Source: Eledone cirrhosa (Eukaryota). From it: DNA of 64,000 nt. Position 1 is the stretch's first letter; every line of letters starts with the position of its first letter. Positions 4,001 to 61,436 of the stretch are shown here, in pieces. The DNA is taken from positions 65,224,001-65,288,000 of the forward strand of contig OZ024740.1 in the NCBI GenBank assembly GCA_964016885.1, read 5' to 3'. A model generated the notes under the pieces. It saw only the letters and a program-made list of their open reading frames with translations, made no database searches and had not been told where the DNA came from. A program made the position numbers and the translations under genes.

Positions 4001-4653
4001 CCAGGTATTATTTATCTCAGTATTCAGATCATTGTCTGCTTCGGGTGGTTCCTCCGTTCTCAGGACCTCCTCACCTTCATTTCCCACCGGCTCGCTTGTC
4101 TGGCATACTACACCCGCCATCTCCAAGCCATTCTCTCTGCTCAGTTCCTCCAGTTCCAGCTCGCTTATCCACCCATTAGTTCTTATTACCCGAGCCTGCC
4201 CGGCCAATTTTTGTTCATCTAATTTAAATAAACCAATCTCGTTCCAGATGTTATGCATCCGTCTCCTGTAGCCCCTCTCCTTGGGGTTACTTTTCAGGTA
4301 GCATTGCATAACAGTTCTATTCAATTCTTTCGTCCAGTTGGTTCTGGCCCCTTTCCTTCTTCTTCTTCCTCCAACATCAGCAGTATTTGGTTGACAGTCA
4401 GGTTCCTGCTGCTGAGCCAGGGGGCACCTGTTGGGTGAGAGTCTGTCACATGACGTTCTAGTCTCCATTTCACCGTTATTCGAACTGTTTATGTTCGATA
4501 TTTAAACACTCTTATCGAGGATTGGCGAATGTATGTTTACATAGCCATCTGTGGATCCGCCATCCCACTTGGCCCTTGTGTGGCATTATCACCACGCTGT
4601 ATACGAACACACATAAACAAACAAACACACGGGCAGAAAGGGCCCCAAAAATG
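1001..4653 (-). mobile_element. Near full-length R4/Dong-clade non-LTR retrotransposon (RT, CCHC zinc knuckle, restriction-like endonuclease) inserted in (TAA)n
   Basis: ORFs 3689..4468, 1373..3667 and 1086..1382 join into one frame. RT motifs KSPGPDG, NYRPITCL, GIFQGDSLSPLLF, HLLFMDDLK; CRICGEREETVAHIVSEC; RHD and PDLVV..IVDVACP..EKINRY (RLE). (TTA)n tracts on both sides (881-1000, 4655-4707). Confidence 0.92.
1086..4468 (-). pseudogene. Single ORF of the R4/Dong element (~1130 aa), with one stop codon and one frameshift
   Basis: In-frame TGA at 3689-3691 (WWKK*LSG, probably from CGA) and a 1-nt loss in the A-run near 1406-1410 (restoring it gives TDKKLEHNRPDLVVV). Confidence 0.88.
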
Positions 4654-7931: not shown

Positions 7932-8628
<697 letters not shown>

Positions 8629-8784
8629 ATACATGTTATACATTAATATATATGATAAACACAAAATGTGTTTGCATTGTAACAGACAAAGTTAGCTATA
8701 AATGAAATAAACTAATTAAAGTGAATACAATTTGTCTGTCTCGATATAAGTCAATAAAGACAAGCTTATATTGGCAAAAGCCGT

Positions 8785-8934
8785 GATTCCTGGATAAATC
8801 TAAATTTCAAAATCCAAACCCGCTCCGTAGACGAATTTGAACTTCGAAACCTAAATATGTTTCGCAACGATGGTACATGAATTGAAAAATAAAAAGTGAA
8901 ATATCCAAATCTTCTGTGCTTATCAACAGGAATC
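8785..8934 (-). ncRNA. Second copy of the oversized hammerhead (ATC cleavage triplet)
   Basis: Reverse complement of 9517-9666 with a few substitutions. Confidence 0.75.
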
Positions 8935-9516
8935 CAGTAAAATTAGTACATTCCACCATCAAACATTTTGCAGGTCTGACTACACGTGTGTGTAGCCAGC
9001 CAAACTAGCCGTCCCGCATTCCCGGTGCTAGAAATAACAGCCGTTTATACGGGATTAAAGATCAGCTCTACAGTTAAGGAGCAATATACTATATTATATT
9101 TTGAGATTAAACTCTCAGTCGTTTACAATTAATCAGCTGCAAGAAAGAGGCATTTCCGAGCAGTATATCGAGACAGACAAATTGTATTCACTTTAATTAG
9201 TTTATTTCATCGATAGCTAACTTTGTCTGTTACAATGCAAACACGTTTTGTGTTTATCATATATATTAATGTATAACATGTATTTAACTGCTCGGAAATG
9301 CCTCTTTCTTGGAGCTGATTAATTGTAAACGACTGAGAGTTTAATCTCAAAATATAATATAGTATATTGCTCCTTAACTGTAGGGCTGATCTTTAATCCC
9401 GTATAAACGGCTGTTATTTCTAGCACCGGGAATGCGGGACGGCTAGTTTGGCTGGCTACACACACGTGTAGTCAGACCTGCAACATTTTTGATGGTGGAA
9501 TGTACTAATTTTACTG

Positions 9517-9666
9517 GATTCCTGTTGATAAGCACAGAAGATTTAGATATTTCACTTTTTATTTTTCAATTCATGTACCATCGCTGCGAAACATATTTAG
9601 GTTTCGAAGTTCAAATTCATCTACGGAGCGGGTTTGGATTTTGAAATTTAGATTTGTCCAGGAATC
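9517..9666 (+). ncRNA. Oversized type I hammerhead ribozyme, U3:A8 core variant
   Basis: GATTCCTG (9517-24) - TTGATAA - GCA..TGC - GAAA (9588-91) - 65-nt stem III rod with cTACGg loop - GTC (9656-58) - CAGGAATC. Confidence 0.8.
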
Positions 9667-9733
9667 ACGGCTTTTGCCAATATAAGCTTGTCTTTATTGA
9701 CTTATATCGAGACAGACAAATTGTATTCACTTT

Positions 9734-12952: not shown

Positions 12953-15522
12953 AGTATTTACGTATCGAGAAAGAGAAAAAAAGGGGGGATAGGTGATACA
13001 TATAGTTATTTGCCAAGTAGCGTATGCCAAAGGTGCTCGATACTAGTGCCGGCAGTATTAAATATTCGAAGTGTTAATATTTAGTGGGCTAGAGAGTTAG
13101 CAGAGCGGAAGCACGTGGGAAAGTAAAAAATCGGAGAATAGACCGTTAAAACATGTTTATTTAAAATATCACCTACGTACGTTTCACCCAGTTGGGCTTC
13201 TCAAGGGCATACATAATCACAAGTGTTCCTTATATTGCTCGGAAAGAGTTTTTGGGGTTAGATCCACATCAAGGTACATTGCTCGCAAAAATATCTTGTT
13301 TTGATTTTGCAGCAGGTCAAGGGAGGTAACTCTGGCCGGTGTTAGGGCAGTCTTTCCCGGACAAATTTTTTTTTTTTTTTTTTGCCGCATCCGTTTGTCT
13401 GAGGCTGGGTCTGGTATGCAAGGATTGTTACCTGGGTGTTATTTTGTAGCGCCTGCCCGCCGGGGTGTTAAGACTTGTTGCAGGGAGATCCAGTGTACTA
13501 TTTCACTCTTCATCCTTAACCCATCTGAAGAAGGATATTTTTAAGCGATGTGTACAACTTATCGCTGTTTCAGCTCTGCTGTTGATGAGCTCGTGGGGTG
13601 CAGTTATGATGTGGTAGAGCTCCATGAGGCAAAGATCGCATTTCCTCTTGAAGTTGTACGGTGCAGCCCTGCCGACAATCTCCCAGTGCGTGGAGAAACT
13701 GATGTTTAAGTCCTTTAGTGATGTGATGTAGTCCGCGAGCGAAGTGGAGTGCCTTAGTTTTCTATTTGTGAAAGAGTGGAGATGTGTTCGAACCTAATTT
13801 TGAACGGGCCGGAGGTGGCCCCTATATAATGTTTAACGCTATTGTGGCTAGTAATAGTGCATCTATATATAACCCTATCAGTCAAGCACTATCCTCTAAG
13901 GGGGCAGCGTCCTCTGTCGCGGCAGTTGCAATTTCTGTCGCGGTTCCGTCTATTTCCCACGGTAAGGCTATCATTGTTGCTACCTACGTTGTTACCTACG
14001 CTACCGCAGCTGTCGTTAGCACAATTACGTGGTGCGATTGTTATTCCGCACGTCATGTTCTGCATGTTCCCCAGTCATTTCGCGGTCATTCTGGTTGCGT
14101 CTGCGGATGTCGTTGCCAACACTATTGGATGCTGCCAGGGAGTTGTTAAGGCCGATATAGTTATTGTCAGGTGTAGGTACGTCTGTGTCGAGGTGCTGTG
14201 TCTTGGTGATCTTACTGTGGTTCGTTGTTCCTATGATGTCTGCTAGGTTAGGAGTAGTAGAGAAGGATATTTTTATATTGTTCCTATTAAGAATTTTTCT
14301 ATACCTATGGTTGGGCGGGAAGTTTTTCTCTAAGGCTTCGAAGAACATCCGGGGTATGTTGGAGCCCACACTCCGAGAGTAGGGGGGGGACCATAGGACG
14401 TTACGGTGGCGATTACGTGTCTTTGTACTTTTGCTACGGGTGGTTCCATCTAAGTGACCGCTCTTATGTGTGTTAATGCGCAGTCGCCCGTTCGGTGCCC
14501 CTTTCACTTTATGCTCGGGTGCACTCTTTCTACCTCTTCCATGTTTATGTACACGAAGATGATGGTTGGAAGGCGTTGGTAGTAGGCCGTCGCCTTTGTT
14601 GGTTTTGTAATAGGGGAATAGTTTGAGTAATCTACAGTGTTCACCGTCGCCGGGGACGTCATCTTTGGTGCGGTTATCTATTATATCCGACTTCAACGAG
14701 GTCGCTGCGTGATCGGTTATAGGTATGGCTTACTATAACGTTAGTTTTATGAGCGGTGTGGTTTCTAGAGCTAGCGTTAGGGATGTAGGAAATTCCTCGG
14801 TTAAAGCCGGCGCTTATCAGGACCCTATTATAGTAATCATCCGCTTGGTTGAAGATATCCTCATTGGCGGATAGCCTCGAGATTCTATGTGAGATACTAT
14901 AGACTATGGAGTTGAGAGTCTGCTTAGGGTGGTTGGAGGCATAATCAATATAAGAGAAGCACTCTCCAGGCTTATGGTATGGCTTGTATAAGCCCGTACT
15001 CAACTCCAGAGTCACATCCAGGAAGTTGACAACCCTGTGGTTGAGGTCCATAGTTACGGATAGGCCGTATGACTTAAAGAACCTGTGTATATGTTTGTTA
15101 AGGTTCTCTATCCTACGGGGGCTATGGTTCCTAACGGTAAACAGGGCGTCGTCCCTATATACACCTCCTTGTAGGGCCGGTATTTCTTCCCTAAGCTTAT
15201 GTAGGAGGTATATCCCGACCAGGTCAGTTGCTTGCGCTGAGTCACTGGACCCCATCGTGACATCGAAGTTATCAGGACGGTTGGTTCTGATCCAGTGGGG
15301 GCCTTCGAACTGGATAATGGTTCTACGTTCCGCTAGAATTATATCTATTTCTTTTTTAGTGAGGCTAGTGTTAGATCTAGCTAAGATAAGTGCCTTATTT
15401 AAGAGTATGGGGGAGATAGAGGCGTAGTAGGTATCTATATCAAACTGGGCGAAACGTACGTAGGTGATATTTTAAATAAACATGTTTTAACGGTCTATTC
15501 TCCGATTTTTTACTTTCCCACG
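12953..15522 (-). mobile_element. 5'-truncated Naiad-type Penelope-like retroelement with an inverted terminal piece
   Basis: FDVTMGSSDSAQATDLVG, GGVYRDD, NFLDV, LWSPPYS, CNCR..CPL..C, VIY..HYIG (GIY-YIG). 15443-15522 is the inverted copy of 13114-13193; (TA)n on both sides. Confidence 0.9.
13167..13211 (-). ncRNA. Minimal type I hammerhead (U3:A8) in the PLE 3' region
   Basis: Minus strand: tatgccc TTGAGAA gccc-aact-gggt GAAA cgtacg TA ggtgata, then AATAAA. Palindromic stem III; stem I imperfect. Confidence 0.7.
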
Positions 15523-16131: not shown

Positions 16132-18769
<2,638 letters not shown>

Positions 18770-18774
<5 letters not shown>

Positions 18775-19671
18775 AGTGATGAAACACAGATACCAACACA
18801 TCTGTATATATATTGCAAAAGAAAAATTTAGCCAGATTGAAGTATACTAATTATTATACTACAGTTTGTCCATATCGATTTAAAATAATAAATCAACGGA
18901 GACGAACTGTATTGGCAAAAGGCCGTGACGTTTAGACACATTTAAATTTCAAAATCAAACCTGTTCCGTAGATAAGTTTAGACTTTAAGATCCAAATATG
19001 TTTCGAGTTAAATAAGTGTAGGAATATCATGTCCCGCTCTCCTCAGTAAACATCCAGAGACAAATTGATATGCTTCACTTCTAAATGATTTAAAAGACTG
19101 CGTGACGCACATGGCTTTACAGTATCTAACTAGTCTCATAACCGTACTGCTAGAAATAGCAGTCGTATATATGAGGCGGTTTGCAGCTCAAACTAGGAGC
19201 AGTTAAAATTAATAAGGTAATGAATTCTTTTACAATGGAATCAGCTCGAATGAGGAAAAATATCCCCTGAGCAGTGTATAAATTAATATGTAAGTGATGA
19301 AACACAGATACCAACACATCTGTATATATACTGCAAAAGAAAAATTTAGCCAGATTGAAGTATACTAATTATTATACTACAGTTTGTCCATATCGATTTA
19401 AAATAATAAATCAACGGAGACGAACTGTATTGGCAAAAGGCCGTGATGTTTAGACACATTTAAATTTCAAAATCAAACCTGTGCCGTAGATAAGTGACAA
19501 ACTGTAGTATAATAATTAGTATACTTCAATCTGGATAAATTTTTCTTTTGCAATATATATACAGATGTGTTGGTATCTGTGTTTCATCACTTACATATTA
19601 ATTTATACACTGCTCAGGGGATATTTTTCCTCATTCGAGCTGATTCCATTGTAAAATAATTCATTACCTTA

Positions 19672-19677
<6 letters not shown>
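18770..19677 (-). mobile_element. Retrozyme-like element, locus 2: 518-bp unit x1.4 plus a 182-bp inverted segment
   Basis: atgtaagtgatgaaacacag at 18770 and 19288. 19496-19677 is the reverse complement of ~19208-19388. (TA)n on both sides. Confidence 0.88.
18927..19054 (-). ncRNA. Oversized type I hammerhead ribozyme, canonical core
   Basis: Minus strand: GATGTTTA CTGAGGA GAG..CTC GAAA catatttgga..cTACGg..tttaaatgt GTC TAAACGTC (TAAACATC in the second copy). Confidence 0.85.
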
Positions 19678-22439: not shown

Positions 22440-24599
22440 ATGCGAAAACACAACATTGACTTCTCTACCAAGAACATCCCAATCCCACCGAAAAAACTTT
22501 ACCTTCGGATGCTCACGCAAAAAATCGATCTATTTGCGAAAATACTTAGATGGAGAACTTTTTTCTATGACAGATATTGCGACAACCAGGACTTCGGCAC
22601 CAAGGAGAGATTCGGATTTATTACCTACAAATCTCCGCCCCGAACCCCTTGCTCTCACCCTTCGAGAATGACCTCTTCCAACTGGTCAAGAACATTAAAT
22701 TTAAACCCAGACACAACCGATTCCTACAAAAACTCCGTAGCAACTTAACAAAGTATGATAACACCAATGACATCATGGTGCATTCGGATAAAACTGGGAA
22801 CCTATACTTTGTCAACCCTGACAGATACCACACACTGATCAGGAGCAGTCTAAACTCCACCTATAAAAAGGCCAACCACTCTTGCATCGAGGACCTAAAT
22901 CGAGATGGACAACAAATTACCTCCAGCCTCGGGGTCGCCGACCGCACGGAACCTCTAGACCCACGGACACCATACTTCACACTGAAGGACCATCAATCCG
23001 ATTTTGACCGTAAACCCTCTATCAGGCTTATTAACCCAACGAAGTCCGACATAGGGAGAATCAGCAAAAAAATCCTAGACCGCGTGATACCAAAAGTCAA
23101 GCAACACGCCCGACTTAGCCTATGGATCAACACCCAGGAAGTAATCTCATGGTTCAGCAATATGGAGGATAAACGAGACACTAAATTCATACAGTTCGAC
23201 ATAGAGAGTTACTATACTTCAATCACCTTACCGCTACTTACTGCCGCCTTGGACTTCGCTGAAACACTTGTGCCCATCACCGACCAGGAAAGAAAAATCA
23301 TCCTCCACGCCAGGAAGACAGTCTTACTCTTTGACAACTCTAAATGGATAAAACGAGCTCCCGACTCACCCTTCGACGTCAGCATGGGCGCCACGGATTC
23401 GGCGGAGGTCACAGATCTTATAGGATTATTCCTAATAGCCAAACTCACCGATATGTTTCCTGCATTCGGTGGTGGATTGTACCGTGATGATGGGCTCCTT
23501 ACCCTTAAAGGGTACAACTCCAGTAGTACAGATCGGGTCCGGAAACAATTAATCAGCTTCTTCCGCGACTGGGGATTTAAAATAACCCTACAAACGTCCG
23601 TGACCCGACTAAACTTCCTGGACGTGACCCTCGACCTCGAAAACGACCTGTGCTACCCATACAGGAAACCTAATGACAACCTGCACTACATCCACCGCCG
23701 ATCAAACCATCCTAGGAACATCACAAACAACCTGGTCAAAAACATCTCCCTCCGCATATCCCGTTTGTCAGCTAATGAGCGGATATTCGATGAACATGCG
23801 CCTTATTACAACCAGGCCCTCAAGCGGAGTGGTTTCCGGGAGGAAATATCCTACTGTCTAGCTCCCATTAGCGGAACCAGCAGGAGACACCGCCGCTCAC
23901 ACAATGTAACATGGTTCAATCCTCCCCACAACGCAGAGGTGACAAATCCCATCGGGAAACTATTCTTTAGGCTCATTGAAAAACACTTCCCACTACAACA
24001 CCGCTACCACAACATAATTAACAAAAATACCATCAAACTCTCTTACAGCACTACACCTAACTTCGAACAAAACATCGTCTCCTCTAACAACAAAAAACTC
24101 AACCCCGATGGCAGAAATAACCTAAATAGCAGTGGAGAACCGACCAGGAGGTGTAACTGTCCGGATAGATCCATTTGCCCACTCAACAATAGATGCAGAG
24201 ACCGTAATGTGATCTACCAGTGCAACGTGAGGACGGATACCTCCAACAAAGCCTATATAGGACTTACCGCATGTGACTTCAAGACCCGGCTATACCAACA
24301 TAGACATACCTTCCGAAACCCGGCCTCGGCGTCACGCCACTACACTTTCGGGCTACATATGGGACCCCAAGGACAACAACATCACCTATGATCTCACTTG
24401 GAGATTACTGTCCAGAGCCAATTCTTACAGGGGAGGACGCCGTCCGTGCAATTTATGCTCGGAGGAAACTTTACAAATGCTGTTTTCGACGGACCAACTC
24501 CTAAACAAGAAAGATGAACTGGTTACTGCATGTAAACATATATTGCGTAGGACTTACCTCGCCCTCAAACCCCATAATGACCCGGGGGGGGGGGGGTAG
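22440..24599 (+). pseudogene. Naiad PLE RT + GIY-YIG polyprotein (~720 aa) with two frameshifts
   Basis: N-terminus FSTKNIPIPPKKLY..LRWRTFF; SDKTGNLY, TLKDH, IRLINPTKSDIG, QFDIESYY, MGATDSAEV, GLYRDD; CNC..CPL..C; VIY..AYIG; CNLC..E; CKH. Frameshifts near 22640 (C-run) and 24330. Confidence 0.92.
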
Positions 24600-25683: not shown

Positions 25684-25777
25684 ACCCCTTGAGAAGATCG
25701 GCTATTTAAATACCAGGATAAATTTTCATTTAGTCCAGAATTAGCCGTCGAAACGGCTTGAGCTCAGCCGTCGGGGT
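25684..25777 (+). ncRNA. Type I hammerhead ribozyme (U3:A8) with full stem III in the family A pLTR
   Basis: ACCCC TTGAGAA ga(t)cggcta..tagccgtc GAAA cggct-tgagctc-agccg TC GGGGT; predicted cleavage after 25772. Other copies at 22161-22254 (+) and 20800-20893 (-). Confidence 0.88.
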
Positions 25778-25884
25778 CTTACTGGTTCCTATTACCCACT
25801 CTACTACCCCAAGTATTGAGTACTTTGGTGCGTTATGGTCCACCTGGTTCCTTACCACATTTCCTTCGTTATATATATATACAT

Positions 25885-27477: not shown

Positions 27478-27585
27478 AAAGTTTGTCCTTCATCAGTGGC
27501 CTTCCAACCGTCGTAGGCATTTCGTCGCTTTAAAGGCGAAATGCCTACGACGGTTGGAAGGCCACTGATGAAGGACAAACCTTTT
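27478..27585. repeat. Near-perfect ~50-bp-arm hairpin next to (TA)n, probably a PLE-tail fold-back
   Basis: gtttgtccttcatcagtggcc..atttcg / cgaaat..ggccactgatgaaggacaaac. Confidence 0.8.
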
Positions 27586-27634
27586 CATATGTAACCCATT
27601 TTCAACGCCGCAGCTCCATTATTATCATATTTAC

Positions 27635-27690
<56 letters not shown>

Positions 27691-27695
<5 letters not shown>

Positions 27696-27890
27696 AAAAA
27701 GTTCAAGACCCCGACGGCAGACCTCAAGCCGTTTCGACGGGTATTTCTGGACATCCAGAAATAGCAGTCAAAACGGCTTGAGCTCTGTCGTCGGGGTCTT
27801 GAACTTATTCCAATTACCCACTCTACTACCCACAGTTTTGAGTACTCTGGTGCGTTATGGTCCATATGGTTCCTTACCACACTTCCTTCG

Positions 27891-27892
<2 letters not shown>
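27691..27892 (+). mobile_element. Solo family A tail with fold-back
   Basis: Diverged match to 25735-25870, with an inverted arm centred on tttctgga-ca-tccagaaa (~27751). Confidence 0.85.
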
Positions 27893-27981
<89 letters not shown>

Positions 27982-27986
<5 letters not shown>

Positions 27987-30985
27987 TAAAATAACAGATT
28001 AAAGTTTAAGCAAAGAATCGATGCTTTCACCCTTAACGGGATCTTCTGAAACTAACAAAGTCAATCTGTAAACGCAGAACTGGATATTTCAAAAACGTTG
28101 CACCCGGAGGAAGACAGGAAGACGATACTTTGGTTCGTGGAAACGTTCGCTGGCAAAGAACGGAAAAAAAAAGAATAATAGGTCATTAATAGGAGCGGTG
28201 AAGGACGGTGGATTGGCAGTATCGGTAGAGGGTCGGACGCCATGCTTTCCAGCATAGTTACGTCCCTTTACGATCTGAGTTCAAATCCCGCCGAGGTTGA
28301 CTTTGCCTTGCATCCTTACGTGGTCGATAAAATAAAGTACCAGTAATGCACTGGGTAATTGCTGGCCTTGTGCCTAAACTAGAAACAATTAATAGGAGCA
28401 GTGAATAACAATTACGCGCAAAGACAGAACCACGTTTATGGTATACAAGAGGTCGTTCACTAATGTTCTCTTAGGTGGTGCATAGAGACGTTCTCTGGCA
28501 ATGAACGAAAAAACGAAGATAATAAGTCATATGTGGAGCGTGGAGAACAATAGCACGCAAAGACAAAACCACGTAAATGGTATAGCAGAAGTCGTAGACT
28601 AAAATTCTAACTAGGAGACCAAATGAATCTCCGCTACAGGGTTAAAAACAAAGTAAATAAATACAATACAGAAGTAATAGAAATAAATAAATACATAGAC
28701 GCAAACAAATACGTACATACACAAGCATACGCAAAACCTTACCATAGGTATACAAAACCACGCACATATAAATATGTGTGTGTGTGTATGCTTGTGTACA
28801 AATAAATAAATAATTATATAAACGTATATAAGTAAATAAGTACGTATATAACAAGCGCACACACATACCTACAAATAAATACACGAATGTTCGGAGACGT
28901 AAGTCAACTAAAACAAGAAGTACACATATACACACACCCACCATACGTACGAACCTGCATACTGACGCAGACGCAAAACTCCCGTATACACATAGCCAAA
29001 CCCTAAATACCATATATATATATAAAAATTATACGCCATAACAATCAAATATACGTACTAGAAGGTATACATAACATCACAAAACATACGGGTAATATAT
29101 ACTTACCTATGCGAATAAGTAAAGGAATAAACAAAACATATACTTAGCTCCCACATCAAGACGTAAAATATCCACGTATAGTTCGTACTATCCGTTAGGG
29201 TATAACGTGGAGCTGTAATACAGGAAAGTTTTGTTCAATTTATGTTTACAAGCCGAAATTGCCTCAGATCTTTTGTTTAAGATGTTGTCTGTGGCGTAGA
29301 GTATGTCCAGGGCCTCAGCGGCGCAGAGGTCACATGGTCTTTTATTTCCGTTATACGATCTAGCCCTAGCTAGGATCTCCCAGTGTAACTTATATTGGGT
29401 GTGGTTGTCTTTTAGACTCCAGATATAAGCTGAAAGTGACGTCATATTCCTTCTTAGAGGGTAACGAAAAGAATGGGTATGCATGTAAAGACGCTGCTTG
29501 AAACTATTGGCGGTTAACCCTATGTAGGCCCTACGGACGTGGGTGTTACAACCTTATATTTGTAGACAATGTTACTAGAGAGGCATTTCCCGGATAGGGG
29601 GCAATCAGCCCGATTCTTAAAATTACAGTTAGTACTAACTACAGGGTTGCACGTGTTCCTACGGCTAGGTAGTTTAGCTAAATTTGAAGCTGTGATATTA
29701 TGTGCAAGGTTAGGAGTCGTAGAGTAAGAATTTTTAATAGTATTTCTATTAAAAATTTTACTATATTTATGTGTACGAGGAAAATGCTTCGTATTAAGGG
29801 AAAGAAAGACCTTAGCTAATGGTGGGGCCACCTCCATATTATATGGTGGGTTAAACCAACAAATGCGACGGGATCTATTTCTTCTAGGTCTATTTTCGTA
29901 CTCTGTATATGCTACCTTATCGACAAATCCACTTCGAGCATTAGCTTCATTGTAATAAGTGGAATGGTCGTTGAAAATGCGTTCGTTGGTGGAAAGACGG
30001 GAAAGCCTCAACGAAACGTTTCTTACCAGGTTCTTGGTTATGCTGGCAGGATGGTTGGAATGCTTACTTATGTAATTAAGCGTATCATTCGTCTTTCTAT
30101 ACGGGTAATACAACCCATTCAATAAATTGAGTGTAACTTCGAGGTAATTAACGACCGAGAGATTGGCCTCAACCTGTATAGAGAGGTTGAAGCCTTTAAA
30201 GAAGGCTGTGAGTTCTTTTCTGAACCTGTCGCAAGCACGAGGTCCGCACTTAGTCATGGTCAAAAGACCATCGTCACGGTAAAAACCACCGCCTGCGTTG
30301 GTGAATTCGTCCTTGATAGAGAAAAGAAGGAAAATGCTAATAAGATCAGTAACGTCCGCAGAGTCACCGGCGCCCATACTCACGTCGAATGGGGTACTAT
30401 TGGATTTTTTAATCCAAATAGAGTCGTCGAAATTAATCACCGACTTTCGGGCATTAAGGATGACATCAACTTCGAAATCCTTAACCGCTGTGAGTGTTTT
30501 AGCGAAATTGATAGCTCTAAGGAGAAGTGGTAAAGTGATGGAGGAGTAGTAATTGTTGATGTCGAATTGGATAAAACGGCAATGTTCCTTGTTACATATG
30601 CCGTTGAACCAATCAATCACCGCGAAAGAATTATTCCACAGTGCAAGAGGGGCCAAAGTTCTAATTTCAGGTATAATTCTATCAAGAATCGTTTTACTAA
30701 GTCTACCTAAATCGGACTTCGTAGGGTTAATAAGCCGAATAGAGGGGTTGTTCGGAAAATTGGATTTGTGATCCTTCAGAGTAAAGTGGGGAGAAATAGG
30801 GTCCAGAGGTTCGGTCCGGTCCAGGATGTTACGATCAGATGTGATTTTAAACCCAGCATCGTTGATTTCATTGATGACGCACCGATTAGTTTTACGGTAA
30901 TCCTTAGTTACAGCATTATGTAGTAGTTGATGGTAAATACTGCGCTCCACTTGATATAGGTTGCCAGTTTTGTCGGAATGGACGT
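27982..30985 (-). mobile_element. 5'-truncated Naiad-type PLE (family B) with a nested SINE
   Basis: ORF 29520..31025 (HSDKTGNLY, TLKDHK, QFDINNYY, MGAGDSA, GFYRDD) and GIY-YIG tail 29188..29484; 3' UTR closely matches 16330-17460. Confidence 0.92.
28203..28387 (+). mobile_element. tRNA-derived SINE (~185 bp) with an 18-bp TSD
   Basis: A box TGGCAGTATCGG, B box GAGTTCAAATCC, central gactttgcctt(g)catccttacg..gtcgataaaataaagtaccag. TSD attaataggagc(g/a)gtgaa at 28185-28202 and 28388-28405. Confidence 0.93.
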
Positions 30986-31689
30986 GCATGCGTGTAGCCA
31001 GCATATGTACGAGACACAAATACACACACTCTCACACACATATATGTAAGTGTACATCCACACGTACATAGACACACACGCACACACTCCCCCCCTTTTC
31101 ATATAAATCGGGAAACTAATAAGTCTTTTATCACAGTTTTTTCGTTTCCTTGAACTATATCTGTTAGACACGCAGTGACTAACTAACAAGAAGAATGTTT
31201 TAAATCTGCGTGTCTGATCTGACTGACATACATGCGTAGCTTGGGAATAAAACAAATCAAGGGGTATCGCTGGCCGTGGTGATCCCCCCCCCCCAAGCAT
31301 ATTTTGTAATGTATCGTCTTATTGGCTAATTTCATCGTCATATTGGCTATTCAACCAACGAGAGTAATTGTTGCTCAAAAGCATCTGCCACTTTGTTTCC
31401 ACGTTTATTTATCGTTTCGCTTTCGAATCTTCCTCCAGTATTTCGTCGTTTATCATCAAAATATTTTTCTCGTTTTGGTAAGTTATATTGTTAATTTATA
31501 TATGATTTTTTAAATTTATATTAACTATTAGAAGTCTGAAAATATTTTTATACATCTTACAATAATATTTATATGATCATTTGTAAAATAACAATTATAT
31601 AATCTAATTACATTACAACGATAATTTAGTATTAATTTATATCATGTTTAACTAGAGTTATTACAAGCGTTTCCTTAAAAACATATTAA

Positions 31690-32134
31690 ACTAGACCTGA
31701 AAAATGTGCAGGCTCAAAAGAGCCACAGAATGTTATAAAAAACCTTCAAACGTGTGGGACTAGAGTTGTTGCTCAAAAATATTGTAATGATTATCTATCG
31801 TACACACTGTGGCACCCTTTTATAAAAAAAGAGACTCATAACGAACTGAAGACGACACGATAATTATTTAAGTGAATTTATAATATATAATTCGGTTTAA
31901 GTGCATTTCGTATTAATCATTACTAAACATCTAATATGAGATATTGAACATTAGCTTAAATAATTATCGTGTCGTCTTGAGTTCGTTATGAGTCTCTTTT
32001 TTATAAAAGGATGCGGCAGAGTGTACGATAGATAATGATTACAATATTTTTGAGGAACAACTCTAGTCCCACACTTTTGAAGGTTTATTATAACATTCTG
32101 TGGCTCTTTTGAACTTGCGCATTTTTCAGGTCTA

Positions 32135-32136
<2 letters not shown>
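31690..32136. mobile_element. Fold-back element with ~182-bp arms and CTAG termini (MITE or inverted Helitron-type ends)
   Basis: 31690-31872 and 31955-32136 are imperfect inverted repeats with an ~82-bp AT-rich spacer. Confidence 0.75.
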
Positions 32137-32207
<71 letters not shown>

Positions 32208-32211
<4 letters not shown>

Positions 32212-33578
32212 GTTTAGTAGTCAGTTACAAATATTAAGCTCTAAGAAAATACTTCTGAGCATTACATTATAATTTAAAAAATAATAAAAAAAAATATATG
32301 ATCAACACTACTGTGTTTTTTTTGCAAAATGACAATCATTTTTTAACCAGATAGAAATACCTTAATTCAAGTACATATAGTCCGTCTGTATCGATCTAGA
32401 GAATATTAAATATTAAATCTATACTTACAGACGTAAAATGGCAACTGCCTGGTGCCTAGACAAGTTTAAATTTCAAAATTCAAACCTTTTCAGCAGATCG
32501 GGCAGAACTTCCAAACGTAAACCTGTTTCACAAGGGATGTTATACTAATGAAATCATTAATTAATTACGGAAAAACTATTTATAAAATAATTATTAGTAA
32601 AGTAATCAATTTTCTGTGATCTTCGGTAGGCACCCAGAAATTAAAATCACTTCTCCTAAGATAATATCTTAAGACTGATCTGTCGCAAGCCTAATACATG
32701 TGCTTTTGCACACGACCTTCTCAGCATTCTGGCTCATATCCATGGCGCTAGAAATAGCAGCCATGAATATGTGATTATGAATTCAGCTCACAGTAGGAGC
32801 AGATTAATTTCAGTTTAGTAGTCAGTTACAAATATTAAGCTCTAAGAAAATACTTCTGAGCATTACATTATAATTTAAAAAATAATTAAAAAAAATATAT
32901 GATCAACACTACTGTGTTTTTTTTGCAAAATGACAATCATTTTTTAGCCAGATAGAAATACCTTAATTCAAGTACATATAGTCCGTCTGTATCGATCTAG
33001 AGAACATTAAATATTAAATCTATACTTACAGACGTAAAATGGCAACTGCCTGGTGCCTAGACAAGTTTAAATTTCAAAATTCAAACCTTTTCAGCAGATC
33101 GGGCGGAACTTCAAAACGTAAACCTGTTTCACAAGGGATGTTATACTAATGAAATAATTAATTAATTACGGAACAACTATTTATAAAATAATTATTAGTA
33201 AAGTAATCAATTTTCTGTGATCTTCGGTAGGCACCCAGAAATTAAAATCACTTCTCCTAAGATAATATCTTAAGACTGATCTGTCGCAAGCCTAATACAT
33301 GTGCTTTTGCACATGACCTTCTCAGCATTCTGGCTCATATCCATGGCGCTAGAAATAGCAGCCGTGAATATGTGATTATGAATTCAGCTCACCGTAGGAG
33401 CAGATTAATTTCAGTTTAGTAGTCAGTTACAAATATTAAGCTCTAAGAAAATACTTCTGAGCATTACATTATAATTTAAAAAATAATAAAAAAAAATATA
33501 TAATCAACACTACTGTGTTTTTTTTGCAAAATGACAATCATTTTTTAGCCAGATAGAAATACCTTAATTCAAGTACAT
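32208..33578 (-). mobile_element. Retrozyme-like element, locus 3: 601-bp unit x2.3
   Basis: ttcagtttagtagtcagttac at 32208, 32809 and 33410; copies nearly identical; shares motifs and helices with loci 1 and 2. Confidence 0.88.
32451..32634 (-). ncRNA. Oversized type I hammerhead, CCGAAGA (U4C) core; second copy at 33052-33235
   Basis: Minus strand: GGTGCCTA CCGAAGA tcacag..cttgt GAAA caggttta..taaactt GTC TAGGCACC. Base of stem II is weak. Confidence 0.7.
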
Positions 33579-34494
33579 CTGTGGGGGGAGGGGGGGGGGG
33601 TCTGCCATGTATATGAAGAAATAGAAGGCATAGATGCAATACAATAAAGAAAAGAGAAAATAAATAGAAAATAAATGAAAAATTAATGAAAAATGAAAAA
33701 AGAAAAATGAAAAAAGAAAAATGATAAAAGAAAAATGAAAAAAGAGAGATGGTGACAGGATGGATGAAGAAACACACACAGATACTTCTAAATGTCAGCA
33801 GCAGCAAGACATATGCTGACCACAACACCAACACCACTACCAAAATAAGGATAGAGATCGGATGTACTTAACAATAGCAAAAACAAACACTACAGGGAGC
33901 CTCACCCCAGAAAGAATTTCTATAGACTTTTGACTGAGGAATGCTCTCAAAACTGACCAATGGGAGGAGTGAACTTACAAATCTTTATAACATTGAGATT
34001 GGGTATAACACACACACATTTTAATTTGATTATTTTATTTTGTTCCTTTACCATCTTATTCCCTCTACCACTTTATCATTTTTTGGAGCTGACTCCAACA
34101 CCAACACCACTACCAACATAAGAGTAGAGGTCAGATGTACTTAACAATAACAAGAACAACCACTACAGATTGCCTCGCCTCAGAAGGAATTTCTATAGAC
34201 TTTTGACTGAGGAATGTTCTCACAACTGATCAATGAGAGGAGAAGATGTCCTTTGACGCTGAAATTCGTTTGTTTAAATTCATATGATTCCAGTTCCTCT
34301 GTGAAATAACAACCCAACCAGGAACTGGGCATATAAGAGTATTGACAAAGTTAAACACCTCAACAACATGTATACTCGTCTCTACCACACTATTTCGGAC
34401 TGCCTGAAGAGGTCACAGTCAAAGATGGCTGTCACCGAAATATATATAGCAGTAATAAACGAAGCAAAATTTTAAACATTTGACTTATTTATTT

Positions 34495-34496
<2 letters not shown>
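33579..34496 (+). mobile_element. Probable PLE 3'-UTR/pLTR fragment ending in HHR, AATAAA and (TA)n
   Basis: Starts with a G-run, has an internal ~270-bp duplication (33823-33970 vs 34096-34241) and a terminal minimal HHR; no coding remnant. Confidence 0.65.
34399..34453 (+). ncRNA. Minimal type I hammerhead ribozyme
   Basis: ACTGC CTGAAGA ggtcacagtc-aaagat-ggctgtcacc GAAA tatata TA GCAGT, immediately followed by AATAAA. Confidence 0.88.
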
Positions 34497-34585
<89 letters not shown>

Positions 34586-40086: not shown

Positions 40087-43000
40087 AAAGTTCTATTTAA
40101 AATTGTTGGGATACAACAAGTAAATATTTTATAACTGATATAAAGCACTCAAGTTTTGGGAGTGGATATAGGATATTAAATAAATGGAAACTATATTTAT
40201 AAAACCATATTTATTTCATTATACATATTTCAGGGATACCAAATTAAAATATGGTATGCCTTCATCAGACAAAATACAATATATAAACAGTTTTATAAAT
40301 AATTTTGACGTACCCTATTAGATGCGACCATTATTTTTGGAAGCTGTCTGGATAGTGAGATGTTTATAATTATTTTATTAGTTATAGTGTTAAGCACAGT
40401 TAGAAAAAAGACGGAGAGAAAGAAAAAACGGAGAGAGAGAAGGAGAGAGAAAAAGAAGGAGAGAGAGAAAAGGAATTATATGCAGAAAAGAAAGATATAT
40501 ATAAAGAGAGAGGAGGAAATGAAAAAGAAAGAAAAAATAAAGAAATAAGAAAGACAAAAGAAAGCAACAGAGAGATAATAATTCATCATACAGATAGAGA
40601 AACTCAAGAGAGAGGAAGTACTATATAGAGAGAGGAGGATATAGTGACAAATTTACGTCATGTCATATTAAGTTGAATTAACAATTCATATGAAATGAAT
40701 AATAAAAATGTAAATATCAATATTCATGAATGGGACATAGATATATAATATGAGAAAATAACATTGTTCAATAATGACCATATGTTTAGTTTAAAACATT
40801 GAGGTCAATATACCAAAATCTGAGTTAAAACCTTCAAAAAATACCCTATTTATAAAAATACGGATACACATATGTATATATATATATACACGCATATGTA
40901 CGTCCTGAACAAAGAGAAAATTATGTCTCCTCCAGTCAATAATATAGACATACATATGATTTCACTTGATCACTTCTATACATTTTTTGTGTTATAAAAA
41001 TTTCACAGTATATCTCCATAAAAATACGATTAATATTCATGTCCTCATATATATGATTACCGTTCATGTATTTAATATTATGCATATCTGCAACACACAT
41101 CAACATATACACACATCAACATATACACACACAACCATACATACACATCTAATCTAAATGAAAATGTTTCAGATTTGGATAAAATTTTCAAATCTAAAAA
41201 AATCCACCCCCCAACAAACTACTAATGGATTTTGAAAACGATATAATTTCTATCATCCAAGCATCAAATTCAAGAGAAACTTCAAAGGCCAGGACTATTT
41301 AAGATGTATTAAGGATAATATTGAAAGCTTGGACAAAACAGAGAAGATCTTTGTGAAATCGGACAATACTAATAACCTTTATGGAGTACAAAAGGACATG
41401 TATAACGGCCTTATATTGAAAGAACTAAGGAAAAAGTACAAGGTAGCAAGTAAGGACGAACTGGAAAAAATGAATACAGAGGCATCTTGTATAATGCATG
41501 AATTAGACATTGAGAATAAAACACAACCCTTCATGCCTAGGAAACCCAAGATCAATATGAAAGATCACAAAAGAAACTTTGAAAATGATTTGCCAGTCAG
41601 ATTGATTGCACCATCAAAATCTGACCTGGGAAAACTTAGCAAAGACATTCTAGACAGGGTAATACAAAAAATTAAAAACTTAAATAATTTACCTTACTTA
41701 AAGTTATGGAAGGGGACTGGTGAGGTTATTGAGTGGTTTAAAGAAATTAAATATAACTATAATAATAAGTTTATTCAGCTTGATATTGCTAACTACTATT
41801 CATCTATCACTCCTAATCTACTGAATAAGGCACTAAATTACACATTTAAACATACCGACCTAACTAGCAATGAAATGCACATTATATTATCGGCAAGGAA
41901 AACATTGATAGAATTTAATAACCAACTATGGACTAGGGTAGATAGAGATAATAATTTCGACATAACTATGGGATCATCAGACTCAGCTCAGGTAACGGAC
42001 CTTGTGGGCCTATTTATAATTAATTCGCTACATAGAAAAATACCAGGTGTAACCGGAGGATTATATTGTGATGACATGCTTTTACTTATTGAAAATAATA
42101 GCTGTGAACTAAATAGAAAAAGAAAACAAATTATACAATTTTTTAATTACCTTAATCTAAAAATAGAAATAGAGAATAACCATAGAATAGTCAATTTTCT
42201 GGATGTAACACTAAATCTCAACACATGTCTTCACTATCCATTTCACAAACTAAATGAGAACTTGAATTATGTCAATTTTAACTCTAATCACCCCAGATCT
42301 GTTAAAAATACTATAGTGAACTCTGTTCAAGAACGAATTTCAAGAATTTCATCTAATAAAAATATTTTTGATGAAAAAGCGCAGTATTACAATGAAGCGT
42401 TAGCTAGAGAGGGATATAGAGATAAAATTAAATACATCGATAATAATAAGCAAACTAACCAAAATAATAACAATTTTAATTACGGTAACAACTTTAACAA
42501 CTATAATAGAAAACATTACAATAATTCCAAAAGCCGAAAAAGAAATAGAACTAGAAATATATTATGGTTTGCCCCCCCTTTCTCACTAAATATTAAAACC
42601 CATATTGCTAAACTATTTTTTAATGCTCTTGACAAACGCTTCCCTAGAACACATAACTATCACTCAATTTTTAATAGACACACTATAAAATTAACTTACT
42701 CGTCCACCAAAAATTTAGCACAAAATATTAACAGAATTAATAATAGGAATTTAAAACCTAACCAAAATACCAACCATAACCCAAACAATATTCAACTAAA
42801 TAACTGTAACTGTAGAAATAAATCTAACTGTCCGTTAAATAACAACTGCTTAGCTAAAAATGTAGTGTACAATTGTAATGTTAAAACTAATTTAAATTCT
42901 TTCAACTATAGTTGGTTCCACCTCGAGAGAATTTAAACTTCGCTTCAATAATCATAAGAATTCTTTCACAGATCCAAACAAAAAATCCTCAACTTCGCTA

Positions 43001-44765
43001 TCTAGCCTACTCTGGCACCTTAAACGAGATAATGTTAAATATTCGATGATTTGGAATATTGTCTCAAAGGTATTCCTTTTAATTCCTCATCAGAGAGTTG
43101 TGATCTTTGTATAGAAGAAATATTCTTTATATTAAAGTCCAAAAATTCCCTTAATTTAAGGAGCAATTTATTCAGTTGCTGCAGACATAGATTGAACTGA
43201 ACGTTTAAATATAAATATAAATTTAAAATGTAGTATAATTAATTAAGAAATTTAGTTAATATATGAAACCTGACGATAAATCATTAGATTCCTTCACCTT
43301 TTTCTTTGTAAACTTTCTTCCTAAATATAAACAAGGATATAATAAACTACTCTAAAATGTATATGCTCCCAATGTATTAAATAAAATTTACGTAAGATAA
43401 ATTTCTATACTAAATATAAGGGCATCCGTAGAATCACTGGGTCTTCTAAATCTTTTAAATTATTTTTATTTTTATTTTTATTTTTTATTTGTTTTTTACT
43501 CTGATAGCTTCTAATAACTTTCATATGTCTACCCTTGCAATATTTTGTTTGAGATATAGGTAGGATAGATTTCTATAATAAATATATAAAACATATTATT
43601 TTAACTTGAGATACTCTATAGTGTTTTAAAGATATTTAATTCTTTGATATTTCTATATTAATATATTGATATTTGATTATCTCTATACAAAGGCAATGTA
43701 TGTGTATTAACATGCATATAACAGGTTTATAGGGTTTATTTATATGTTCGTATATGTGTCTGTATATATGCATAACAATGCTGGAAAACTCACGCAGATA
43801 TTTATTTATACATATGTATGTGTATGTATGGTTGTGTGTGTATATGTTGATGTGTGTTGCAGATATGCATAATATTAAATACATGAACGGTAATCATATA
43901 TATGAGGACATGAATATTAATCGTATTTTTATGGAGATATACTGTGAAATTTTTATAACACAAGAAATGTATAGAAGTGATCAAATGAAATCATTTGTAT
44001 GTCTATATTATTGACTGGAGTAGACATAATTTTCTCTTTTTTCAGGACGTACATATGCGTGTATATATATATACATATGTGTATCCGTATTTTTATAAAT
44101 AGGGTATTTTTTGAAGGTTTTAGCTCAGATTTTGGTATATTGACCTCAAGGTTTTAAACTAAACATATGGTCATTATTGAACAATGTTATTTTCTCATAT
44201 TATATATCTATGTCCCATTCATGAATATTGATATTTACATTTTTATTATTCATTTCATATGAATTGTTAATCAACTTAATATGACATGACGTAAAGTTGT
44301 CACTATATCATCCTCTCTCTATATAGTACTTCCTCTCTCTTGAGTTTCTCTATCTGTATGATGAATTATTATCTCTCTGTTGCTTTCTTATTTCTTTCTT
44401 TTTTTCTTTCATTTTCATTTCCTCCTATCTATTTATATATATCTTTCTTTTCTGCATACATTCCTTTTCTCTCTCTCCTTATTTTTCTCTCTCCTTCTCT
44501 CTCTCCGTTTTTTCTTTCTCTCCGTCTATTTTCTAACTGTGCTTAACACTATAACTAATAAATTAATTATAAACATCTCACTATCCAGACAGCTTCCAAA
44601 AATAATGGTCGCATCTAATAGGATACGTCAAAATTATTTATAAAACTGTTTATATATTGTATTTTGTCTGATGAAGGCATACCATATTTTAATTTGGTAT
44701 CCCTGAAATATGTATAATGAAATAAATATGGTTTTATAAATATAGTTTCCATTTATTTATTATCG
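40084..44765 (+). mobile_element. 5'-truncated Naiad-type PLE (family C) with a ~1-kb inverted 3'-UTR copy at its 5' end
   Basis: ORF 41329..42936 (VKSDNTNNLY, MKDHK, QLDIANYY, MGSSDSAQVTDLVG, GLYCDD, LWFAPPFS, CNCR..CPL..C) with a frameshifted GIY-YIG to ~43200. 40178-41148 is the reverse complement of ~43814-44760. Confidence 0.92.
44660..44724 (+). ncRNA. Minimal type I hammerhead ribozyme (inverted copy at 40212-40276)
   Basis: tattttgt CTGATGA aggcatacca..tggtatccct GAAA tatgta TA atgaaata. Confidence 0.85.
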
Positions 44766-44796
<31 letters not shown>

Positions 44797-46778: not shown

Positions 46779-48370
46779 ATATTGTTATACTTGGGGAGGG
46801 TCATATTTGTGTAATATTGCCAGAATTAATAACAGAACACACTCACTGTTTGGTTGGTTTTCGCTTCTCGCTTATGTGTCTTTTATATCGGTAATCTAAC
46901 TTACTTGGTCCTCAATGTTGCCATTGACTGACCGACGGTCAAAAATAATACAGATACAATATAGACACAAACACATATATATAGTTTATCATAAATATTT
47001 CGTTGCACATCTGCAACATCGTCAGTGGTGCTATCGTTTCCTCCCTTTGCATTGTATGTGTCCAGCATGTGCGACCCAACAGAAATGGAAAGGCACATCC
47101 AACACTTCATCAACCGCATGCAGTTCTCTAGCTACAACCAAAGAGACAGAGTCAGAGTATACGAAGGAGCCATGGAGAAGTATAAGACCCTCATGGAACT
47201 GGACATGAAAGGAATTTGCCCATTATACAGGAGCAAATCATGGAATAGCTTAGATAGGGCTAGACATAAGATAGGGAAAGCCACCTCATGGTACGACAAC
47301 CAGAGATACCAGAGTGTCATGTTTGTGGACGCTACCCCTGGAGGGAAATTAGCTAACCAGTGTAGAAAGGCCCTGCGAAAGACCCACTTAAAAATTAAGG
47401 TGGTAGAAAAGCCAGGAACCACCATAAAATACCTGATCAGCAAAACCTACCCTTTTAAGAAAACCCACTGTACCAATAGGAAATGTATCATACGTAAGGT
47501 AAAGCCCCGGATAAACTCTAAAACTAGAAACGTAGTCTATAGCATAAGATGTACAGAGGGTACTTGCAGAAACATGACAACAACATACATAGGTGAGACA
47601 GCTCGTAGCATATGTGAAATGATAGACCAACACTGGGGGAACTAAAAGGACGAAAAAACGGGTCAGTATTATACGAACATGCTAGACAACAACATGACGG
47701 TAACATAGACAACATAGAAATTAGAATAATATCTAAACATAGAAATGACCCAGCAGATAGGCAAATCAGAGAGGCCAGTGAAATAGAAATTAGAAGACCA
47801 AGACTAAACAGAAAGAATGAATGGAATAACAACACCCAAACAGACAACACTGACCTAAGAGAAGTATAAATAAGTAAATAAAATAAAATAAATAAATAAA
47901 TAAATAAATACATACATAAACAAGCACAATAACAACAAGCACATAAACACACACTAGTCACCCACCACACATCAAACAAAACACTATACACACACGCAAA
48001 CCCCTGCGCAAAGAAGACAAAATAAAATAAACAAACAATCAAACAAATAAATAAATAAATATATAGACAGACTGAATAAAAATGGCGTAGACATACAATG
48101 CAACAGGAGGAAACGATAGCACCACTGACGATGTTGCAGATGTGCAACGAAAGATTTATGATAAACTATATATATATGTTTGTGTCTATATTGTATCTGT
48201 ATTATTTTTGACCGTCGGTCAGTCAATGGCAACATTGAGGACCGAGTAAGTTAGATTACCGATATAAAAGACACAGAAGAGAGAAGCGAGAACCAACCGA
48301 ACAGTGAGTGTGTTCTGTTATTAATTCTGGCAATATTACACAAATATGACCCTCCCAAGTATAACAATAT
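46779..48370 (+). mobile_element. 5'-truncated Penelope-like element of a non-Naiad clade with inverted pLTR
   Basis: ORF 47025..47645: PLYRSKSW, VMFVDATPGGKL, KVVEKPG, VVYSIRC..YIGETARS (GIY-YIG). 46779-47060 is the reverse complement of ~48090-48370. Decayed HHR at 48121-48162 (CTGACGA t gttgca-gatg-tgcaac GAAA). Confidence 0.88.
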
Positions 48371-48411
48371 TCATTTCGACACACGATTTCATATAAAAAA
48401 CCTCGCAAAAC

Positions 48412-60220: not shown

Positions 60221-60390
60221 AGAAAAAGGTATGACCCCGACGGCTATTTCTGGAGTTCAGAAATAGCCGTCGAAACGGCTTGAGCTCTGCCGTCGGGGTC
60301 ATATCGTTTTCTATTACCCCTCTACTACCCTAAGTTTGAGTACTCTGGTGCGTTATGGTCCATCTGGTTCCTTACCACTATTCCTTCGTT
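60221..60390 (+). mobile_element. Solo family A tail with short inversion
   Basis: Matches 25735-25870; left arm gaccccgacggc pairs with gccgtcggggtc. Confidence 0.85.
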
Positions 60391-60797
60391 ATATATATAA
60401 ATATATATATATTCATGCACATATACGGAACGAAACGCCTGTAGAGAAAGGGGTATCCTCGTTTCAACCTTGCGATACATTACTAGCTTGTATGTTACGT
60501 AATGTGGAGTGTAGGTTTCGGATTCCTAGAAACAAGTCGGAGATATTTATAAAATATTTATTGAGCAGGTCCAAGTTTGTCTTTAACCTGTTTATATTTT
60601 AGTTGTTTTAGTGACAACGTGTCTCCGGTCGCAAATTTCACTGTGTCACACCCCTAATATATTGTTATTACTCTGAGCTATAATTTATCAATTTATCTAT
60701 ATAACCTCATTGAGTGATTTGTGCCAGCCCTAGAACATTGATTTCGAAAAATGCTAATCCCAGCTGTAACTTCGACTTTGCTGACTATTATTATTAA

Positions 60798-61436
<639 letters not shown>

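Follow-up and report, generated by a model that had tools for sequence, protein, structure and literature searches.

A retrozyme-like array joined head to head to a Penelope-like tail between (TA)n tracts, and the possible mobilisation of retrozymes by Penelope-like elements

The window, i.e. the whole 64-kb stretch of Eledone cirrhosa DNA analysed here, is AT-rich and crowded with (TA)n tracts and retroelements. At 32208-34497 lies a composite insertion, which consists of three parts and not of two, as the initial annotation had described it. These parts are a retrozyme-like array on the minus strand (32208-33578), whose 3′ end faces left into a (TA)n tract (32136-32208, the inferred target), an inverted piece of the right-hand family (33579-33743, minus strand), and a sense arm on the plus strand (33744-34497), a multi-copy non-coding tail of the Penelope-like element (PLE) type that ends at a second (TA)n tract (34498-34574). 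Both flanking tracts, the 2.3 minus-strand units and the abrupt joint without microsatellite at 33578/33579 were found as first annotated. The annotated plus-strand segment does contain its minimal hammerhead with AATAAA (34399-34459), but it is not one piece, as 33579-33743 is inverted. A palindrome (31683-32144, 85%) with CTAG ends adjoins the left (TA)n tract; its own left end has no (TA)n, and the window holds no further copy of it.

The array comprises 601 + 601 + 169 nt, with 10 differences in 601 positions between units 1 and 2. It has a GC content of 32%, no ORF of 150 aa and no tblastn match below E 0.16 with 120 PLE-type proteins; no tRNA was found in the 64-kb window. Its minus orientation is backed by an extended type-I hammerhead on that strand, at 32451-32634 in unit 1 (core CCGAAGA, i.e. 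U4C, at 32626; GAAA at 32529) and at 33052-33235 in unit 2 (core at 33227). In unit 1, helix I has 8 bp, helix II is weak and closed by U-U (U10.1-U11.1), and helix III, of 9 bp or more, lies in a hairpin of about 70 nt, with a predicted GUC cleavage after 32459. The motif was found by a long-stem search, while a short-stem hammerhead descriptor returned nothing in the array. For the whole window, Rfam returned 53 matches at E ≤ 1, all of them below gathering score and none a ribozyme; run on 32200-34500, it gave one weak miRNA match and no ribozyme in either half. The architecture was matched by 1 of 500 dinucleotide shuffles, on either strand, at thresholds chosen after the motif was seen. 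The circular fold reaches z = -3.9 for the minus strand and -2.0 for the plus strand (40 shuffles).

The hammerhead covaries between copies. In an alignment of 4 rows from 3 subfamilies, which is a small set with the structure drawn on one of its rows, pairing holds in 80 of 84 cells and both sides have changed in 10 of 21 pairs; none of 500 shuffles reached this level and slid controls gave 0-2 pairs. All 32 cells of helix I are paired across the three subfamilies, with 5 of its 8 pairs changed on both sides. The C3-G8 pair of the array covaries to U3-A8 in a relative described below (R1), and both contigs of sequencing run X1 that cover the core also have U3-A8 (UUGAAAA); one contig of organism B has CUGAAGA. 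In run X8, U4 is restored in 9 of 37 reads and each of two paired changes is present in 7 of 37. Since both the stem pairs and the C3-G8 pair covary across copies, the motif is, judging from these alignments, under selection in the family. An array unit without a ribozyme, or one of plus sense, was rejected given the minus-strand hammerhead and its covariation. The ribozyme of the array copy itself may be weak, given U4C, the U-U base of helix II and the fold energy: its hammerhead-conform fold is predicted 8-9 kcal/mol above the minimum, vs. 3-5 for the relatives. U4C, U-U and U3-A8 are described as natural hammerhead variants (PMC3088659), the U4C and helix II U-U variants having reduced activity (PMC3088659, PMC7229834).

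The animal non-LTR retrozymes described in PMC7229834 are, like the array, tandem low-GC non-coding units with one type-I hammerhead each, and the active axolotl HHR_Amex2 has the same U-U mismatch at the base of helix II. The array shares with them tandem dispersed units, a type-I hammerhead per unit and a non-coding, low-GC sequence. It differs from them in lacking a canonical catalytic core and a short helix III (1-2 bp in animal retrozymes vs. a long hairpin in the window family), and in unit size (601, 539 and 518 nt in the window family vs. 150-450 bp). In addition, the cores of the window family vary (CUGAGGA, UUGAUAA, UUGAAAA, CCGAAGA), unlike those of the animal retrozymes in that source. 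The consensus lengths of 51-972 bp given in a 2026 preprint (10.64898/2026.07.22.740005) include the window unit. The family is multi-copy in runs X1 and X8, and a pattern scan for its motif gave 0 matches in viral and metagenome contigs. Its long-stem hammerhead and covariation support the retrozyme identity proposed by the initial annotation, in the sense of a retrozyme-like family whose RNA would cleave itself and circularise.

The right half has no ORF in its 918 nt and no match to the 120 PLE-type proteins. Near its end lies a minimal type-I hammerhead (34399-34459 with the AATAAA, plus strand), with stem I at 34399-34403/34449-34453, core CTGAAGA at 34404, a long helix II, a palindromic helix III and a predicted cleavage after 34448; 3 of 200 shuffles matched this fold. 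AATAAA, at 34454, stands 5 nt after the hammerhead, and (TA)n begins 49 nt after the predicted cleavage site. These last 49 nt end with TTATTTATT; the window PLE at 41236-44770 has a parallel short end at 54 nt. The small palindromic helix III, G10.1-C11.1 and the position near the end are PLE features (PMC4209133). The palindromic helix III is not exclusive to PLEs, as amphibian retrozymes also carry such helices (PMC7229834), and helix II begins directly after A9, in which the hammerhead departs from the PLE pattern.

Further features of the right half come from its copies. It is 5′ truncated and multi-copy, with inverted head-to-head copies that show in run X8 as joints between opposite strands (34280/34288 and 34282/34420). 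Its depth climbs toward the 3′ end in X1 and X8; in X1, the summed word depth is 5,000-48,000 in most bins of 33743-34252 and about 1,000,000 at 34406-34456. This rise may come partly from other families sharing the hammerhead, and about 1,900 X8 reads depart from the hammerhead at 34394-34399 into unlike flanks. Most X8 reads on a 75-nt module (34394-34471) exit at 34394-34399 or at 34471-34472 into unlike flanks; this module would correspond either to very many hammerhead-only insertions or to a module common to many families. At 34471 end 1107 of 1423 X8 molecules, with unlike flanks, while the locus copy ends at 34497 and the comparison stopped at 34496. The sense arm also contains an AC-rich internal duplication of 155 nt (33815-33969/34088-34242, 87%). 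From 33965, 284 X8 reads run into different sequence; the 155-nt block, as far as these reads indicate, is therefore common to another family or subfamily.

The search for an autonomous element matching 33579-34496 found none among the window PLEs, the 120 PLE-type proteins or the metagenome contigs scanned by pattern, where the right-half hammerhead gave 0 matches. Comparison of 33744-34496 with the 3′ regions of five window PLEs was unconvincing (2 to 96 of 100 shuffles scored as high). Three further targets came from a small repeat of the window (near 39.7 and 45.1 kb): two gave a 34-nt AT-rich match (0/100 shuffles), the third none (85/100 shuffles as high). The parent ORF could lie further upstream, since three PLEs of the window have 1.2-1.6 kb of non-coding 3′ sequence. 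The PLE-like tail of the initial annotation thus stands on its hammerhead, its multiple and inverted copies and its end layout, but without an ORF or an autonomous parent found; the right half is PLE-like and would belong to an autonomous PLE.

At the junction, the trinucleotide CAT (33576-33578) is common to the array and to the reverse complement of the sequence of the right family. CAT occurs at 10 of the 601 unit positions, and 1 of these 10 sites has ATA next; the third base of the junction CAT comes from the array and not from (TA)n. The array breaks within an ATATA run, and alternating-AT runs of at least 5 cover only 11 of 601 unit positions, in two runs. The shared CAT supports a microhomology-guided junction. 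On the other side, 33579-33743 is found in other copies directly upstream of 33744 and in sense. Opposite-strand joints from 33586-33595 to 33744-33766 were found in 4 contigs of run X1 and 12 reads of run X8 (15 of 17 joints being listed), and 33579-33743 is therefore the flipped upstream neighbour of 33744; about 7 nt at its outer end overlap with the start of the sense arm. An in-place DNA inversion of this piece would leave the 7-nt overlap unexplained and was discarded. The reads of four of the ten sequencing runs listed, including X1 and X8, were compared with 32978-34496 only, the flanks and outer ends lying outside this range. Organisms B, C and D showed small shares, and B and C gave 14 and 12 records. 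Among the records listed in these runs, which were filtered with repeats skipped, none bridges 33578/33579; 4 contigs of X1 continue normally into the array unit at this position.

We then considered the other elements of the window. Three PLE-type ORFs were checked (22571-24391, 29520-31031 and 41236-42936): two have DKT and the third DNT, two have CxCX5C, and the first has a C-terminal VIY/YIG. Pfam returned no family for them, and among the 120 homologues listed, 118 are unnamed and two have uninformative labels. DKT, the CxCX5C linker and (TA)n targeting are marks of the Hydra clade (Craig et al. 2021, PMC8557442), and the window PLEs are probably of this type, judging from their motifs and (TA)n targets. 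In two PLE ends, 25685-25790 (plus strand) and 13130-13230 (minus strand), the type-I hammerhead has a U3-A8 core, TTGAGAA. With its long helices II and III and GUC site, the hammerhead at 25685-25790 is nearer to the retrozyme ribozyme than that of the right half, and the PLE ending there is a candidate helper of the retrozyme family. The PLE with ORF 29520-31031 has a hammerhead-like end at 27983-28075 (minus strand); a second copy of it lies at 16240-16420 (minus strand), and both have the core CAGAAGA (U4A). The window also contains a PLE-like remnant with a C-terminal YIG (46995-48410, plus strand; inverted arm 46779-47059 vs. 48091-48370), which none of the 120 homologues of the Hydra-type ORF matched, and a non-LTR retrotransposon (1373-4501, minus strand) whose RT frame spans 771 aa (Pfam RVT_1, E 3e-23; zf-RVT weak) and is preceded by a frame of 270 aa.

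Of the 30 stretches that lie between (TA)n tracts, 6 proved self-inverted at both ends in a strict test. Among 11 two-armed insertions picked by hand, 10 have arms of one family that match end to end, with a tail on one side only. The tails measure 80, 86, 80, 80, 82 and 87 nt in six Hydra-type insertions and 82 nt in R2; the remaining insertions have tails of 60, 112 (on a 35-nt match) and 159 nt, and one has no match. Two outward 3′ ends in (TA)n are therefore the norm for single events, and two-primer cDNA insertion from each (TA)n end is the usual mode in the window. The composite has the same geometry, both of its 3′ ends facing outward into (TA)n, as initially annotated. Hydra-clade PLEs are described with the same (TA)n targeting, inverted 5′-truncated arm, tail at one end and hammerhead near the end (PMC8557442). 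The tails reported there are shorter (30-40 bp vs. 80-87 nt here) and the inverted arm repeats the element's own sequence, two-family arms being undescribed in the parts of that source consulted. Tiny two-armed insertions (7987-8177, 27478-27643, 27694-27891, 60222-60400 and 60901-61343) are formed almost entirely by a PLE 3′ end or its hammerhead, in head-to-head orientation and with (TA)n tracts on either side.

Two relatives of the array, sharing 64-86% identity with it in local matches, are inserted in a similar way. R2 (18772-19676; 518-nt unit) has a canonical CTGAGGA hammerhead at 19046 on the minus strand, a canonical core being also present in one organism B contig, and consists of 1.4 minus-strand units and an inverted arm of its own sequence, with (TA)n on both sides and a one-sided tail of 82 nt. 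R1 (8629-9733; 539-nt unit; core TTGATAA, i.e. U3-A8) is a head-to-head self-inverted insertion with (TA)n on the left only. Among the four 3′ ends of the family that are joined to (TA)n, two lie 5 and 16 nt before one TGCTC motif and two lie 6 and 7 nt before the next; a fifth end, in R1, lies elsewhere, outside (TA)n. The 3′ end of the array maps to the distal, tail-bearing end site, 7 nt before the conserved TGCTC. Compared with the PLE 3′ regions of the window, the array unit gave no clear sequence match.

Poseidon, a PLE of Anolis belonging to another clade, was studied in vitro with only its own RNA as template (Frangieh et al. 2024, PMC11167929). Two internal start sites give its tail, its targets are AT-rich, and the purified protein, a predicted dimer, nicks and extends both strands; insertion does not need hammerhead cleavage. 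The two TGCTC-linked end sites of the retrozyme family match this two-start-site origin of PLE tails and are among the best support here for mobilisation of the family by PLE-type machinery. Such mobilisation is also likely because of the inverted insertions R1 and R2, the latter with (TA)n on both sides and a tail within the Hydra-type range of 80-87 nt. From these footprints, we consider mobilisation by PLE-type machinery highly probable, though from a single complete tail measurement, that of R2. This part of the initial annotation is better supported by the two relatives than by the junction itself, which had been put forward as direct genomic evidence. This wording is too strong: the junction is suggestive and not decisive, because its geometry, which resembles twin priming, is also explained by an earlier array or by a deletion, and no parent element was found.

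The initial annotation had read the composite as one integration event that used two RNAs. Compatible ages and the microhomology agree with this, but the claim is not established, as the geometry also fits two-step origins. A single insertion using two RNAs and a template jump is nevertheless our best reading, held tentatively. A Penelope-like, probably Hydra-clade, RT/GIY-YIG complex would nick both strands of (TA)n and prime cDNA from each end. The bottom-strand primer would copy the PLE-like RNA from its 3′ start to 33744, stopping beside a C run, while the top-strand primer would copy 2.3 units of a circular or multimeric retrozyme RNA, beginning at the distal start site. The top-strand cDNA would then jump via CAT to the PLE-like RNA, at the point where its uncopied part begins, and 165 nt more would be copied there; the two cDNAs would be joined head to head. 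Template jumping by retroelement RTs occurs. Kojima 2010 (PMC2912911) mentions template-switch retrocopies and ascribes retrocopies of ncRNAs to template switching.

Several observations bear on this single insertion. The inverted piece begins where the sense arm ends, with about 7 nt of overlap, which is a point in its favour. The array end is the long one of its family and the end of the right half (49 nt) resembles a short one, so that the locus would fit the long-plus-short arrangement of single insertions; if 34471 is the short end of the right family, both arms are long and the rule of the one-sided tail is broken. Near-fixed divergence is 9/863 nt (1.04%) in the right half vs. 10/1202 copy-bases (0.83%) in the array (P = 0.65), so that the two halves are compatible with the same age; with all 23 listed differences counted, the right half reaches 2.67% and appears older (P = 0.002). 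These age and end tests cover the 40 rows listed of 239, from reduced-representation reads of another sample. Against a single event, there is one case only, and it requires that a foreign RNA was used and that the template was changed by a jump, both of them rare steps; events with two RNAs must be uncommon, as the 10 matched insertions all pair arms of one family. The missing autonomous parent or ORF, the absence of a listed bridging record and the possibly weak ribozyme also count against it. Moreover, the break of the array in an ATATA run favours a TA-directed nick in existing DNA.

Such a nick is the basis of a second explanation, in which the array was there first and a PLE-like element was later inserted by twin priming, with nicks in the right (TA)n and in, or at the edge of, the array at CAT|ATA. 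The array-side end would anneal internally to the same RNA, and the rest of the array would have been deleted, or the array would have joined (TA)n at this point. The inverted piece abutting the start of the sense arm reproduces the twin-priming geometry of L1 (Kojima 2010, PMC2912911), where an inverted 5′ piece is primed internally and joints show microhomology; L1 differs in its enzyme family, its poly(A) priming and its target-site duplications, no such duplication being readable inside (TA)n here. The CAT microhomology would be expected in this case as well, and the break in one of the two alternating-AT runs agrees with the preference of the PLE endonuclease for AT-rich DNA (PMC11167929). 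However, this sequence of events works only if part of the target was deleted or if the nick fell at the first TA step, and the 10 insertions with matched arms share their 3′ ends, without an internal abutting start. In addition, a 5′ arm end at TATAT is also found in the ordinary insertion R1, and AT runs at joints are therefore not special. We regard an earlier array as somewhat unlikely.

It is also conceivable, and in our view hardly less likely than an earlier array, that two ordinary two-armed insertions lay side by side in one (TA)n tract and that a later deletion, sealed at CAT, fused them. This deletion would have begun within the array, ended where stem and loop of the right inverted repeat meet, and removed the inner arms and spacer. 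Inner arms would be expected, as both other insertions of the array family are two-armed and the right family makes head-to-head joints in X8; moreover, insertions crowd the (TA)n tracts of the window, the 7-nt overlap resembles the remnant of a lost arm, and the right half may be older when all differences in the 40 of 239 rows are counted (P = 0.002). Long inverted repeats break at their base. Nevertheless, the end of the deletion has to lie no more than about 7 nt from the arm boundary, several of the window's long inverted structures have stayed intact, and the ages of the two halves are alike on near-fixed differences (P = 0.65). An earlier array and a fusion by deletion both fit nearly as well as the single event, and the ranking of the readings reflects our judgement and was not computed. 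Finally, an assembly error between two high-copy repeat families beside a G run, to which the absence of bridging records among those listed in four runs could point, is very improbable, as the homology is of 3 nt only, the joint lies precisely at the point where sequence of the right family itself meets the sense arm, which a false overlap would not produce, and the lack of such records proves nothing given that records were filtered and repeats skipped.

PLEs had already been proposed as the likely mobiliser of retrozymes (Cervera & de la Peña 2020, PMC7229834), and the inverted arms and one-sided tails of PLEs were known. Li, Clavereau & Pollet 2026 (10.64898/2026.07.22.740005) describe animal retrozymes as non-autonomous PLE derivatives, from co-occurrence and pLTR homology in Xenopus, whereas the evidence here is insertion geometry; the words "junction" and "template" are absent from the text of this preprint. 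The window family has inverted arms, while the word "inverted" is absent from the main text of PMC7229834. In the literature searched on retrozymes and PLEs, with supplements and most subscription papers outside the search, no retrozyme-PLE chimera or matching of tails was found. The three-part anatomy with its inverted 33579-33743 and the match in footprint and tail length to local PLEs are contributed by the present analysis.

The enzyme that copies animal retrozyme RNAs into genomes is an open question, for which PLEs have been put forward on the grounds of shared ribozymes, co-occurrence and pLTR homology. The window adds a footprint argument: insertion into (TA)n, arms that both face outward, a pair of conserved 3′ start sites and a tail of 82 nt vs. 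80-87 nt in the local PLEs. As this footprint names a candidate helper clade and start sites, the question becomes testable with purified protein. Going further, a PLE complex might hold two unrelated hammerhead RNAs, prime one on each (TA)n strand and jump between them. At this locus, a Hydra-type PLE would have copied circular retrozyme RNA in trans, and the larger family (518-601 nt) with its long-armed hammerhead would mimic the helper's start sites 80-87 nt apart. This fuller scenario is slightly more doubtful than the single insertion as such. If it is true, the locus would be a frozen record of the process and would reveal a route by which PLEs shuffle non-coding RNAs. If the chimera is indeed the product of one event, the arms of a PLE insertion can derive from two RNAs, which bears on the tandem and inverted structures of PLEs.
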